Positions 13,433-19,363 of a stretch of DNA of 32,000 nucleotides are shown one piece after another. The first letter of the stretch is position 1, and every line of letters begins with the position of its first letter. A program made the translations under genes and the position numbers. The stretch covers positions 540,001 to 572,000 of the forward strand of contig CP064992.1 in assembly GCA_016699935.1 (NCBI GenBank), written 5' to 3'. Below the pieces are notes generated by a model, which made no database searches, had not been told where the DNA came from, and saw nothing but the letters and a program-made list of their open reading frames with translations. This DNA is from Candidatus Saccharimonadota bacterium. Its GTDB lineage: Bacteria > Patescibacteriota > Saccharimonadia > Saccharimonadales > UBA4665.

Positions 13433-16260
13433 ATGGCGAGACTTACGTTTACTGAAGCACAAAATCATGTAGCTGATATTGCCAATCGTGAAACTTATAC
13501 TATCGACTTCGTTTACGAATTGCTTGCTACTTATGGACGGGCAAGATCTGCCATTACTAAATTACGTGAAGGTTCGTTAAATCTTGCTGAAGATAAAGAC
13601 AATGAAATACTACAAAGGGGAGTAGTCTACTTCAAGCATGTGTCAGACCTAATAAGCTACACTCTACTGCTGAAGAATTGGCGGTAGACCCGTTAGTTGT
13701 TCGCTATAACCCTAGATATTTGATTATTTCTGACTATGAGCGACTCGTAGCAGTTGATACTAAGAAGGACAGCCGTCTCGATATTAATCTCGAGATATAG
13801 ATCGTGATGTAGATTTCTTCTATGGCTGGACGGGTGATGAAATCACTGACGAAAAGACCGAAGCTGTAGCAGACCGTCGTGCTGCTGATAAGATGAAAGA
13901 TCTGTACGCTGAGATCGAAAAGGTTAATCGTGCAAAGCTTGCTGACCCACATAGCAACTTCAGGCATGACTTGAATGTATTCTTTAGCCGCTTACTATTC
14001 TGTTTCTTCGCAGAAGACACTAGAGTGTTTAGTCGTGATGAGCAAGCGATGTTCACGAATGCCATCAAAGATTACACTCAAACCGATGGTAGTGATCTAG
14101 ACACATTTTTGATAACTCTGTTTGATGCACTCGATACGCAAGATAAGTCTGGATTTACGAGTCCTTTCAGTAAGTTCCCATACGTCAACGGTACGATCTT
14201 CGACACCAAAAACACAGTATTGGTATTCCAAAGTTTAATGCTCAAGCACGTAAGCTCATTTTAGATTGCGGTAATCAGAATTGGGCTGAGATTAACCCTG
14301 ACATTTTCGGTTCTATGTTCCAGAGCATTGTTGATGAAGTGCAACGAAGCAGTCACGGTCAGCACTATACAAGTGTACCGAACATCATGAAGACTATTGA
14401 ACCGCTCTTTCTTGATGAGTTACGTGAAGAATTTGATAAGTACTATGACAATACTCAGAGGCTCGAAAGGCTTTGGAATAGAATCAGCAAGATCAAAATC
14501 TTTGACCCTGCTTGTGGTAGTGGTAACTTTTTGATTATTGCGTACAAAGAACTTCGTAAAATTGAACACGCCATCATTGAGAGACTATACGGTGACGAAC
14601 ACAAACGCCAGCAGTTAGCAGGAAAGCTTGAATCTCGAATTAAGCTAGATAACTTCTATGGTATCGAGATAGATGATTTTCCGCACGAGATCGCAATTCT
14701 TTCGCTATACCTTGCTAAGCACCAAATGAACATCGACTTCGAAAAGCAGTTTGGTAGAGAGATTAAGCTCATTCCACTTAAAGATAATGCAAACATTATT
14801 CATGGTGATTCGACGATACTAGATTGGAAAGATGTGTGCCCTAATCTACCTCATAAATCTGGTGTTAAGACTGGACCAGAGCAAGGTGCATTAATAGATT
14901 TTGACGATGAACCTCTTGAGCTTGAGCTGGAACAAGAGTCTTGGGATGAGATTTACTTGATAGGCAATCCACCATACTTAGGTTCTAGCCTTCAAGATCA
15001 AACGCAAAAAGCTGGAATGGCACGTGTGTTCAAGAACTTCGGTAACTATAAAAATCTTGACTTCATTGCTGCTTGGTTGAAGCTCGGTGCTGACTACATC
15101 AAGGGCACTAATGCTAAGCTTGCATTCGTATCGACCAAGTCGATCTGCCAAGGTGAACAGGTCGAGTTAATTTGGCCTTATTTACTACATGACACAGAGA
15201 TTGGCTTTGTTCATAAACCTTTCAGATGGACAAATAATGCCGTAGGAGCAGCAGCCGTAGTATGTATTATACTTTCGCTACGCTCGCCTAATTCAAAAAG
15301 AGCAGCATATATTTATGATCAGAACATTCGTCAAGAAGTTCAAAATATTAGTCCGTATTTGATTGAGTCAAAGAACGTGATAGTCAAGTCAAGGAGGACC
15401 CAAATATCTGGCTTGTCTGCGATGGTGTATGGGAATAAGCCCGTAGACGGCGGCCACCTGTTCTTGACTTTAGACGAGAAGAATTTCCTGACTGATACGT
15501 TTCCTGAAACAGTGCCTTATATTAAAAAGTAATTGGGGGAAGGAGTTCTTGCACGGTATAGATCGCTGGTGTCTCTGGTTACCGAAAGGTGTTGACTATG
15601 AGAAGCTATCCCATATCCCTTAATTGTTGAAAAATCGGTAAAGTAACTGAATTCAGAAAAGCCAGTAAAGACATAGGTGCTCAAAAATTAGCACTTACCC
15701 CTTATAGATTTAGGGATATGAATAATCCTGATACTTTCATTGTCGTACCAAGAACTACTTCCGAAAATAGGGATTATATTCCTTTTGCTTTCTATACTAA
15801 TGACACAATTGCAATTGATAGCTGTCAGACGATTCCTGGTGCAAACCTATCTGATTTTGCTGTAATCACATCAAAGATGCATGTTTCATGGGTTAGAAAG
15901 GTAGCAGGTTACTTAGGGACGAGTTTCCGATATTCATCAGCTATTGTTTATAACAATTATCCCGTACCTGTATTATCTGACTCCCAAAAACAAGCACTAT
16001 CAGAGCAAGCACGAAACGTACTAATAATACGTGAAAACCATAGCGAAAAGACGCTCGCTGAAATGTACGATCCCGATAAGATGCCAGAAGATTTACGTCA
16101 AGCTCACTATGAATTAGATCTTGTAGTAGATAGATTGTATCGCTCTAAGCCTTATAATTCAGATGAAGAGCGACTAGCAGATTTATTCGCACTGTACGAG
16201 CAAATGACTGAAAGGAGAAATCAAAATGAACGAAGAAACATTGAACATCATCGACGTTAA
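13433..16260 (+). CDS. MmeI-family (type IIL/IIG-like) N6-adenine DNA methyltransferase, possibly a fused restriction-modification enzyme; about 8 frame breaks in this assembly
   Basis: Family blocks recognised across frames are listed in order:
- NPRYLIISDYERLVAVD
- FFSRLLFCFFAEDTRVF
- FSKFPYVNGTIFD
- INPDIFGSMFQSIVD...GQHYTSVPNIMKTIEPLFLDEL
- SAM motif I, IFDPACGSGNFL
- catalytic motif IV, IGNPPYLGSS
- the TRD-region block GIDRWCLWLPKG
- C-terminal DLVVDRLY

The reconstructed length of about 940 aa is comparable to MmeI. Confidence 0.85.
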
Positions 16261-18200: not shown

Positions 18201-19363
18201 TGGACCTATCAGACGATCTAGTGAAGCTGTTTGAATCTGGTGATGGGCACATGTTTGTTCCGCCAAAGAAACAAGCTCCTGTGACGGCTGATGATCGTTT
18301 GGCTGCTTCATTTCAGCAGATTACTGACTTCGTTAAGAACAATGATCGTCTACCAGAAATTGAATCGAACGATATTAGTGAAGCGTCTTTAGCGGCTCGC
18401 TTGAATTCAATTCGGACCGATAAGACTAAGGCAGAAGCACTGACACTGATAGATGAATTGGGATTACTAGAAGTACCCGAAGCACCGAAGTCTGTTGATG
18501 AGTTATTTGAAAGCGATGCTTTCGGTTTATTCAGCAGTACAGGTGATCAGATATTTAAGATGAAAGAAGCTCTTTCAAAGCCTAGACCAGTAAAAGAGCG
18601 TGCAGCACGCAAACGAGCTGAAGACTTTGATTCTTTCAAAGAAGGTTTCGAAGAGCAACAGCGATTGCTAGGCGAAGGTAAATTGAAGTTACAGCGGTAT
18701 GTCTCAGTCGAACAGCTTCATCTAGGCAAATACTATGTTCATGCAGGTCAGATGCTACGTATTATCGACGCAACCGATAAAAAGCGAGTATATGACCGTA
18801 ACAAAGAACGTTTTCGAGTTATCTACGAGAACGGTTCAGAATCAAACATGTATCGACGTTCATTATCTATGCGTCTTTATGAAGACGGCTATGCAGTTGT
18901 GCCAGCTCACGAAGATAGTGTTTATCAAAGGCTGACTGACGATGACGAGATAAAGGGCTATATATACATTCTGAGATCACAGAGTGCTGACCCTGCCGTT
19001 CAGAACGTGAAAGATCTGCATAAGATTGGTTTTACCTCAACAACTATCGTAGATCGTATTAAAGACGCTGAGAAAGACCCTACTTACCTCATGGCAGGTG
19101 TTGAAGTGGTAGATAGTTATGTGCTGACAGGTGATTATAATCCTCAGAAAGTCGAACACTTCATTCATCGTATATTTTCAGATGCAAAAGTAGACCTGAC
19201 GATTATTGGACCTGATGGGCGAGAGTACGTTCCTAGTGAGTGGTATTCAGTACCGTTACTAGCTATCGAACAGGCAGTTAATATGCTTCAGAACGGTGAT
19301 ATTGTCGATTACCACTACAGTAAAGACGCACAACAGATTGTAGCGAACGAGGAGAAAGCATGA
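18200..19363 (+). CDS. T5orf172 / GIY-YIG-like domain protein
   Basis: Intact 387-aa ORF. The C-terminal half, KGYIYILRSQSADP...LHKIGFTSTTIVDRIKDAEKDPTYL...KVEHFIHRIFSDAKV...PSEWYSVPLLAIEQAV, follows the T5orf172 pattern. Its start overlaps the helicase stop (TAATG). Confidence 0.75.
   Translation: MDLSDDLVKLFESGDGHMFVPPKKQAPVTADDRLAASFQQITDFVKNNDRLPEIESNDISEASLAARLNSIRTDKTKAEALTLIDELGLLEVPEAPKSVDELFESDAFGLFSSTGDQIFKMKEALSKPRPVKERAARKRAEDFDSFKEGFEEQQRLLGEGKLKLQRYVSVEQLHLGKYYVHAGQMLRIIDATDKKRVYDRNKERFRVIYENGSESNMYRRSLSMRLYEDGYAVVPAHEDSVYQRLTDDDEIKGYIYILRSQSADPAVQNVKDLHKIGFTSTTIVDRIKDAEKDPTYLMAGVEVVDSYVLTGDYNPQKVEHFIHRIFSDAKVDLTIIGPDGREYVPSEWYSVPLLAIEQAVNMLQNGDIVDYHYSKDAQQIVANEEKA

Follow-up and report, generated by a model that had tools for sequence, protein, structure and literature searches.

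A YeeA/YeeB/YeeC-type gene triad on a putative integrative element of a Saccharimonadota bacterium, and a predicted helical module shared by its helicase and T5orf172 protein

MmeI homologues comprise a nuclease-bearing set without conserved neighbours and a "second set" whose first ~100 residues are unlike MmeI. Homologues without the PD-ExK nuclease invariably have genes for a YeeB-type helicase and a YeeC-type GIY-YIG protein as neighbours (PMC2731913). Purified YeeA-type proteins had no endonuclease activity, and a Type I-like mechanism was proposed for the triad (PMC2731913). Bacillus subtilis DnmA (YeeA) is an active N6-methyladenine methylase at GACGAG (PMC7261158). In Vibrio crassostreae, yeeAB protects from phages (bioRxiv 10.1101/2021.05.05.442762). 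In ICP1 Gp88/Odn, the T5orf172 domain has nuclease activity (PMC8263062). The three-gene module is already known: it was defined in 2009, its methylase was characterised in 2020, and defence in Vibrio was shown in 2021. In this study, a methylase, helicase and T5orf172 gene triad was analysed in 32,000 nucleotides (nt) of a Candidatus Saccharimonadota genome (contig CP064992.1, positions 540,001 to 572,000), called the window. The analysis adds an answer to the nuclease question, quantified synteny, a diagnosis of assembly artefacts, and a statistically supported module common to helicase and T5orf172 protein. That module apart, this copy of the triad is ordinary.

The triad consists of three consecutive genes on the forward strand (Table 1). 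The original prediction, made from the sequence alone, had named six MmeI-family blocks, a DEFH helicase and a T5orf172 protein, and all were located where it had placed them. It had proposed a restriction-modification (RM)-like module with separated activities, which held, with methylation and recognition, motor, and nuclease on three proteins. The gene order it named for B. subtilis, yeeA-yeeB-yeeC, was confirmed by the literature (PMC2731913, PMC7261158, PMC9973331); its suggestion that the system would be functionally undescribed was mistaken, since the system has been described since 2009. The gene junctions are translationally coupled. The helicase start overlaps the methylase stop, the T5orf172 start overlaps the helicase stop (TAATG), and the T5orf172 gene joins the next gene through ATGA. 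Every defining feature of the type that was examined was present. The locus is very likely a member of the YeeA(DnmA)/YeeB/YeeC-type triad.

The methylase was ~934 amino acids (aa) long after correction of roughly eight 1-nt deletions. Its pieces matched the Pfam families MmeI_Mtase (7.5e-94), MmeI_TRD (3.7e-37), MmeI_C (6.2e-24), MmeI_hel (1e-21), and MmeI_N, the last with 2.6e-18 in the rejoined protein. The frame-corrected methylase matched the MmeI structure 5HR4 with E = 1.3e-164 over query residues 88-929 only. In phmmer, the similarity began at methylase residue 88, which corresponds to MmeI residue 102. The window methylase and 44 relatives from other genomes were aligned with MmeI (45 sequences), whose N-terminal sequence was checked against 5HR4. 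VVYFKHV was found in the window methylase where MmeI has LLIEMKS. In the alignment columns, MmeI E80 is replaced by K, R, A, H, or Y, and MmeI K82 by V, T, I, F, E, or A; the ExK dyad was found in none of the 45 sequences. Whether the MmeI-type nuclease is intact had been left open by the original prediction. It is not intact, and the EDK near codon 53 offered as a candidate lies upstream of the catalytic ExK position and is not its equivalent. The missing PD-ExK agrees with Morgan et al. 2009. The ExK loss suggests that restriction of unmodified DNA may be delegated to the helicase and the T5orf172 nuclease.

The target-recognition domain (TRD) was hypervariable between close relatives. DNA identity between window positions 15000-16000 and positions 2000-3000 of the related locus L003 was 0.51-0.55, compared with 0.91-0.95 in the flanks. 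This implies a putative TRD swap by recombination between relatives, which would change specificity. TRD swapping among relatives that are >90% identical elsewhere is expected for selection for new specificities. If the methylase acts as MmeI does, it would be expected to modify only one strand of an asymmetric site.

The rejoined helicase matched Pfam DEAD, ResIII, and Helicase_C, and no nuclease domain was found in it by Pfam. Motifs I, II, and VI were invariant across the helicase family, and homologues 99% identical to the window protein were 658 aa long. The helicase was the best-conserved partner, with 53-58% identity across phyla; the values were 41-46% for the methylase and 32-39% for the T5orf172 protein. 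A Bacillus plasmid helicase was 57.7% identical. The AlphaFold2 (AF2) model of the whole helicase was poor (mean predicted local distance difference test score, pLDDT, 59.7) and was left out of the fold search.

A Candidatus Saccharibacteria metagenome-assembled genome (MAG) in NCBI encodes a protein that is 100% identical to the T5orf172 protein. From N- to C-terminus, the T5orf172 protein has a helical module, a disordered linker, a beta-rich middle domain, and the T5orf172 domain. Pfam matched residues 253-362 with T5orf172 (1.4e-08) and MUG113 (3.5e-10), and no Pfam family was found in the N-terminal 240 aa. The AF2 model had a mean pLDDT of 71.6. Foldseek with this model gave matches to viral T5orf172 proteins and nothing in the PDB at E ≤ 0.001. 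R286, N314, E319, H323, E347-W-Y, and Tyr positions were conserved in the family alignment, and catalytic roles of these residues are inferred by analogy with GIY-YIG enzymes. The middle domain (residues ~160-235) was strongly conserved and carried the motif ENGTESNMYRRSL. It had a weak, non-significant Foldseek likeness to the SH3/Tudor-like barrels of EF-P, the UvrD C-terminus, and UHRF1. This domain possibly binds DNA or a partner.

The C-terminus of the helicase and the N-terminus of the T5orf172 protein share a predicted helical module of ~52 residues. With family profiles, hhalign aligned helicase residues 598-650 with T5orf172 residues 28-80 at a probability of 93%, E = 2.4e-7 and a score of 43.3. 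Sixty column shuffles scored 11.0 on average (maximum 15.6), 60 block shuffles 12.0 (maximum 19.6), and the reversed profile 11.4. The module-to-module match was the only match of either module within the full-length partner, and no third copy was found in the methylase (hhalign probabilities 0.2-2.9%). Hidden Markov models of one family, searched against the other, hit the right position in about 25 loci in each direction and gave no other match in ~60 loci. A joint alignment of the modules had an invariant Pro, an invariant Glu, and an almost invariant aromatic residue. AF2 predicted a helix-loop-helix in both copies with a pLDDT of about 80 (68-88 in the helicase copy); the helices of the T5orf172 copy covered residues 30-48, 59-73, and 75-80. 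Pairwise BLASTP of the helicase C-terminus against the T5orf172 N-terminus was not significant (E = 0.91, an unrelated stretch), a negative result that the profile-profile comparison supersedes.

Relatedness of the two modules had been noticed by eye in the original prediction, which likened them to helicase-associated domains. Their homology was borne out by hhalign, while the assignment to the Pfam HA domain was not. HA (PF03457) matched no window protein at E up to 1 and none of ten modules from diverse loci at E up to 10, although very weak matches may be hidden by HMMER filters. The ten modules gave chance-level matches only, such as DUF4041 (0.016) and PMBR (0.009). The pattern resemblance of the module to the HA domain is an unverified lead. 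A search of a protein database with the module alignment returned only fragments of 51-109 aa, mostly broken helicase C-termini. The module is unmentioned in the literature examined here. In L059 (Proteus plasmid pG32-177), the module-bearing nuclease N-terminus is a separate 96-codon open reading frame (ORF) at 7930-8217, located before a 305-aa GIY-YIG protein; the methylase of this locus is cut off by IS26.

The distribution of the triad was scanned in one genome per GTDB species with an alignment of T5orf172 homologues as query. The scan returned 53 loci, and the 47 with at least 4.8 kb of upstream DNA were taken as informative. In 46 of these 47, the helicase gene lay directly upstream of the T5orf172 gene on the same strand. 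An MmeI-like gene lay upstream of the helicase in all 46, cut by the contig end in two. The phyletic co-occurrence that the original prediction had named as a check was thus found, with one and the same gene order. The triad occurred in Saccharibacteria and other Patescibacteria, Actinomycetota, Bacteroidota, Pseudomonadota, Desulfobacterota, Chloroflexota, and Bacillota, and in one MAG labelled Woesearchaeota. The sole exception was L030 (Nanoperiomorbaceae MAG, 8767-9630), in which methylase residues 1-113 abut T5orf172 residues 170-383 without a helicase; this locus appears to be what a deletion has left of the triad. The helicase was found on 265 plasmid records by tblastn, and on the 7.7-kb Pediococcus plasmid pP76 the three triad genes are the only annotated ones. 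Megablast of the 6-kb window region against plasmids gave no match.

Inserts of 1-2.4 kb with extra genes were present between methylase and helicase in Bacteroidota and Proteobacteria loci (Table 1). By eye, the products resembled AlbA_2-like proteins of 552-561 aa, RhuM-like proteins, and a pair of 357 and 142 aa with a Fic/DOC-like member. AlbA_2-like, RhuM-like, and Fic/DOC-like hitch-hikers are often found inside Type I RM operons.

A mechanism can be proposed from these features. The MmeI-like subunit would read a short asymmetric site through its fused TRD and protect host DNA by N6-adenine methylation. It has lost the PD-ExK nuclease of true MmeI enzymes, and restriction would have passed to two other proteins, the superfamily 2 (SF2) helicase as a translocase driven by ATP and the separate T5orf172/GIY-YIG nuclease. 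At unmodified sites, the methylase would recruit or activate motor and nuclease, as in the Type I-like proposal of Morgan et al. The ~52-residue module would most likely tether the nuclease to the motor or dock both onto the methylase. This mechanism of delegated restriction has about an even chance of being correct. More tentatively, the module may serve to assemble a restriction enzyme of a distinct class, in which a one-strand MmeI-type methylase would license a Type I-like motor that delivers a GIY-YIG (T5orf172) nuclease.

Several points speak against this account. T5orf172 was first described as a DNA-binding domain, and the window protein has KIG in place of YIG as its second GIY-YIG motif. 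That the shared module mediates an interaction is pure inference. We know of no experiment in which a YeeB/YeeC pair cleaved DNA. In B. subtilis, neither three phages nor plasmid transformation was restricted by the locus (PMC7261158, PMC9973331). In the parts of the Vibrio preprint considered here, yeeA and yeeB were inactivated, which bears on these two genes and not on yeeC (bioRxiv 10.1101/2021.05.05.442762). The uneven spread of frame breaks, described below, belongs with these points.

An alternative is that phage is excluded without cutting, as BREX or DISARM do. Self would be marked by the methylase, the helicase would remodel unmodified DNA or block its replication, and T5orf172 would bind DNA, as in its original annotation. 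Weak PglX, DrmMI, and MAD2 profile matches of the methylase are in line with this, and genomes of Bacillus phages show no depletion of the DnmA motif (PMC9973331). However, the PglX and DrmMI matches were partial and far under the curated cut-offs (NCBIfam BREX PglX, 42.6 bits against 500). PADLOC found no PglZ, BrxC, BrxL, DrmA, DrmB, or DrmC among the triad pieces and four downstream ORFs. The T5orf172 family keeps Arg and Glu at the positions usual for GIY-YIG nucleases, and one of its proteins is a proven nuclease (PMC8263062). Exclusion without cutting is therefore considered unlikely.

The state of this copy was also examined. About ten frame breaks were found; two affect the helicase, and the remaining eight or so the methylase. 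The original prediction had noted a single break, across the N-terminal region of the methylase. The methylase runs through reading frames A/C/B/A/B/C with a further shift just before the stop. Every alignable break was a 1-nt deletion in the window, and several were in or next to short single-base runs. Relative to close relatives, the methylase deletions were CCC to CC at 13648, TT to T at 13790, and a base lost after A5 at 14213. Four deletions inside the divergent recognition domain, where the DNA was too divergent to align, were placed from the relatives' motifs. No nonsense substitutions and no larger indels were found in methylase or helicase. The universally conserved ychF and a tlyA-like methyltransferase gene were also split by 1-nt deletions in the window, as were the genes for the Toprim primase and for a heavy-metal P-type ATPase. 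The frame-corrected helicase differed from that of L004 by 100 synonymous and 6 nonsynonymous codons, a ratio as in the intact T5orf172 gene. Orthologues were intact in L001/L002, L003, and L004, with 933-936 codons for the methylase and 658 codons for the helicase. Since there is a single error type, constraint is not relaxed, core genes are broken too and relatives are intact, the roughly ten breaks are very probably long-read assembly errors and not biology.

If methylase and helicase of this copy were instead genuine pseudogenes, only the T5orf172 and downstream defence genes would be functional. The distribution of the breaks is in favour of this: about ten lie in the 4.8 kb of methylase and helicase, and the ~6 kb that follow (18200-24178) are free of them. 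Such a spread is not predicted by uniform sequencing error, and a homopolymer census gave no explanation for the frameshift-free part. The B. subtilis locus was concluded to be a relic (PMC9973331), and L030 appears to be a real deletion remnant. Decay to pseudogenes is nevertheless distinctly unlikely, because only single bases are deleted, the conserved genes ychF and tlyA are broken alike, helicase codon differences are about 15:1 synonymous as in the intact T5orf172 gene, and at least four close relatives have intact orthologues. Apparent pseudogenes of this assembly should not be taken as biology.

The methylase could also act as an orphan in epigenetic regulation, a role proposed for DnmA in B. 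subtilis, with helicase and T5orf172 protein as inactive passengers or serving another purpose. This is very unlikely: the synteny of the three genes is strict across many phyla, all three are under purifying selection, the locus lies in a putative defence island on a mobile element, the TRD is swapped between near-identical relatives, and phage resistance in Vibrio depends on yeeAB. A complete stand-alone type IIL/IIG enzyme like MmeI, with helicase and T5orf172 as mere neighbours, is extremely improbable despite the best PADLOC model (REase_MTase_IIG, E = 1.9e-146) and the name "type IIL restriction-modification enzyme MmeI" in some plasmid annotations of methylase homologues, because the ExK dyad is absent from the window protein and all 44 relatives, MmeI similarity starts only at residue 88, purified YeeA-type proteins lacked endonuclease activity (PMC2731913), and the partner genes are invariably there. 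For this family, it is misleading that PADLOC files the methylase under complete type IIG enzymes. Taken together, a YeeA/YeeB/YeeC-type triad with delegated restriction on a mobile element and with artefactual frame breaks is considered the probable reading.

Table 1. Features of the triad and its surroundings (window positions unless a locus is named; MTase, methyltransferase; SAM, S-adenosylmethionine)
Feature	Position	Strand	Remark
Triad	13433-19363	+	methylase, helicase, and T5orf172 genes, consecutive
Methylase	13433-16229	+	MmeI-homologous gamma-class N6-adenine MTase with fused TRD, YeeA/DnmA type
Methylase N-terminal ~88 residues	13433-13696	+	position of MmeI PD-ExK core; ExK dyad missing
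PRYLIISDYER block	13711-13743	+	methylase
FPYVNG block	14175-14192	+	methylase
IFGSMFQS block	14303-14326	+	methylase
Methyltransferase catalytic core	14504-14977	+	motifs I and IV; MmeI_Mtase match
DPACGSGNFL	14504-14533	+	methylase, SAM-binding motif I
NPPY	14966-14977	+	methylase, motif IV
Target-recognition domain	15000-16000	+	hypervariable between close relatives; Pfam MmeI_TRD
RWCLWL block	15564-15581	+	methylase
Methylase breaks	13648, 13790, 14213, ~15515-15525 (two), ~15622-15640 (two), ~16214	+	frame changes
Helicase	16226-18200	+	SF2 helicase/translocase, YeeB type; 658 aa after correcting two 1-nt deletions
APPASGKS	16364-16387	+	helicase, Walker A, motif I
DEFH	16708-16719	+	helicase, motif II
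QIIGRCTRD	17356-17382	+	helicase, motif VI
Helicase breaks	16436, 17953	+	both A6 to A5
Helicase C-terminal helical module	18015-18173	+	residues 598-650; homologous to T5orf172 N-terminal module
T5orf172/MUG113 (GIY-YIG superfamily) gene	18200-19363	+	YeeC type; intact ORF, 387 aa
T5orf172 N-terminal helical module	18281-18439	+	residues 28-80; homologous to helicase C-terminal module
T5orf172 middle domain	18680-18905		beta-rich
T5orf172 catalytic-type core	18956-19255	+	invariant or nearly invariant columns of family alignment
GYIYIL	18956-18973	+	T5orf172 core
HKIGFT	19019-19036	+	T5orf172 core
GmrSD	19360-21543	+	defence-type, outside triad; Pfam, PADLOC, NCBIfam
Shedu SduA-like DUF4263	21546-22697	+	defence-type, outside triad; Pfam, PADLOC, NCBIfam
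DUF2779/Cas4-like	22697-24178	+	defence-type, outside triad; Pfam, PADLOC, NCBIfam
Large serine recombinase	7448-9052	-	mobile-element backbone upstream of triad
HTH_17-type gene	within 7448-12947	-	mobile-element backbone
Toprim primase	9431-11639	-	broken at two 1-nt deletions; undivided in L004 (720 codons)
Small ORF	12717-12947	+	upstream of triad
Split genes outside triad	588-1323, 6376-7411, 9431-11639, 25681-27732		single-base deletions
Loci with inserted genes	L039 5315-6973, L047 5224-6909, L054 5339-6997, L048 2146-3147, L050 802-1833, L049 5419-6924, L052, L057		between methylase and helicase

The triad is followed by three defence-type genes, GmrSD, Shedu-like, and DUF2779. They stand beside the triad in L001, L003, and L006-L009 and are absent from L004, L005, and L010-L017; in L004, other genes replace them downstream of the triad. 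Because the downstream neighbours vary among close relatives, the unit is the triad and not a six-gene array. The backbone genes upstream of the triad were likewise called, with Pfam matches, in L004 and L001. A low-GC island extends from about 7500 to 28000, with a guanine-cytosine (GC) fraction of 0.38-0.43 compared with 0.48-0.51. The locus lies in a predicted defence island on a putative ~20-kb serine-recombinase integrative element. In the scans made, no tRNA genes and no Rfam families were found, and the promoter scan gave fewer sites than were found in shuffles.

At both edges of the island, at ~7462-7476 and ~28093-28107, the sequence CATCTAACCC[T/A]ACCT was present, and one copy adjoins the serine recombinase gene. 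These copies are possible attachment-site cores of an integrative element of ~20.6 kb. No exact repeats of at least 11 nt were found at the island edges. Two copies of a perfect 45-nt direct repeat (24170-24214 and 27794-27838) enclose a 3.6-kb cassette that encodes a CsoR-like repressor, a DUF305 protein, and the P-type ATPase, which suggests that this metal-resistance module may have been inserted as a separate unit. In the left flank, a 104-nt tandem repeat (1775-1974, 1.9 copies, 96% matches) with the GC-rich hairpin GGAGGGACGGTAGTCCCTCC sits downstream of a small GIY-YIG-like ORF (277-615); it had no Rfam match.

The triad is widespread, with its helicase on 265 plasmid records and its loci in many phyla, and its mechanism has been unsolved since 2009. 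The present locus extends its range to the ultra-small Saccharibacteria of the candidate phyla radiation (CPR), alongside GmrSD, Shedu-like, and DUF2779 genes. One homologous module on both effector subunits and a TRD swapped between near-identical relatives give an experimental handle. If the module is the assembly element of a distinct restriction class, the complex is directly testable.

Compared with known systems, the locus is closest to B. subtilis DnmA-YeeB-YeeC, the "second set" of Morgan et al., and V. crassostreae yeeAB. All have an MmeI-like methylase/TRD protein without PD-ExK, followed by a DEAD-type SF2 helicase and a GIY-YIG/T5orf172 protein. As in B. subtilis and Vibrio, the genes lie on horizontally acquired low-GC DNA, while the Saccharibacteria host and the serine-recombinase element as carrier differ from those systems. 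B. subtilis YeeB and YeeC are reported to miss stretches in their C-terminal parts (Fernandez et al., PMC9973331). The methylase resembles MmeI (5HR4) and type IIL/IIG enzymes, with helical spacer, gamma-class N6-adenine methyltransferase, TRD, and C-terminal domain aligned over residues 88-929. It differs from MmeI in missing the N-terminal D70-X9-E80-X-K82 nuclease site and in having conserved helicase and nuclease partner genes.

The locus differs from BREX and DISARM, with PglX below its cut-off and no partner families among the scanned neighbours. The T5orf172 protein is like ICP1 Gp88/Odn (PMC8263062) in carrying a C-terminal T5orf172 domain on an N-terminal targeting or adaptor region. 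That region is a DNA-binding RepA_N domain in Gp88/Odn, whereas here it is the helical module shared with the helicase, followed by the beta-rich domain. Like Type I RM systems (HsdM/HsdS/HsdR), the triad has separate modification/recognition and motor subunits with an SF2 translocase, and in some loci RhuM-like, Fic/DOC-like, and AlbA_2-like hitch-hikers lie between the methylase and motor genes. Unlike Type I RM, it has no separate HsdS, since the TRD is fused to the methylase, and its nuclease is a separate GIY-YIG/T5orf172 protein and not a PD-ExK domain of the HsdR motor.

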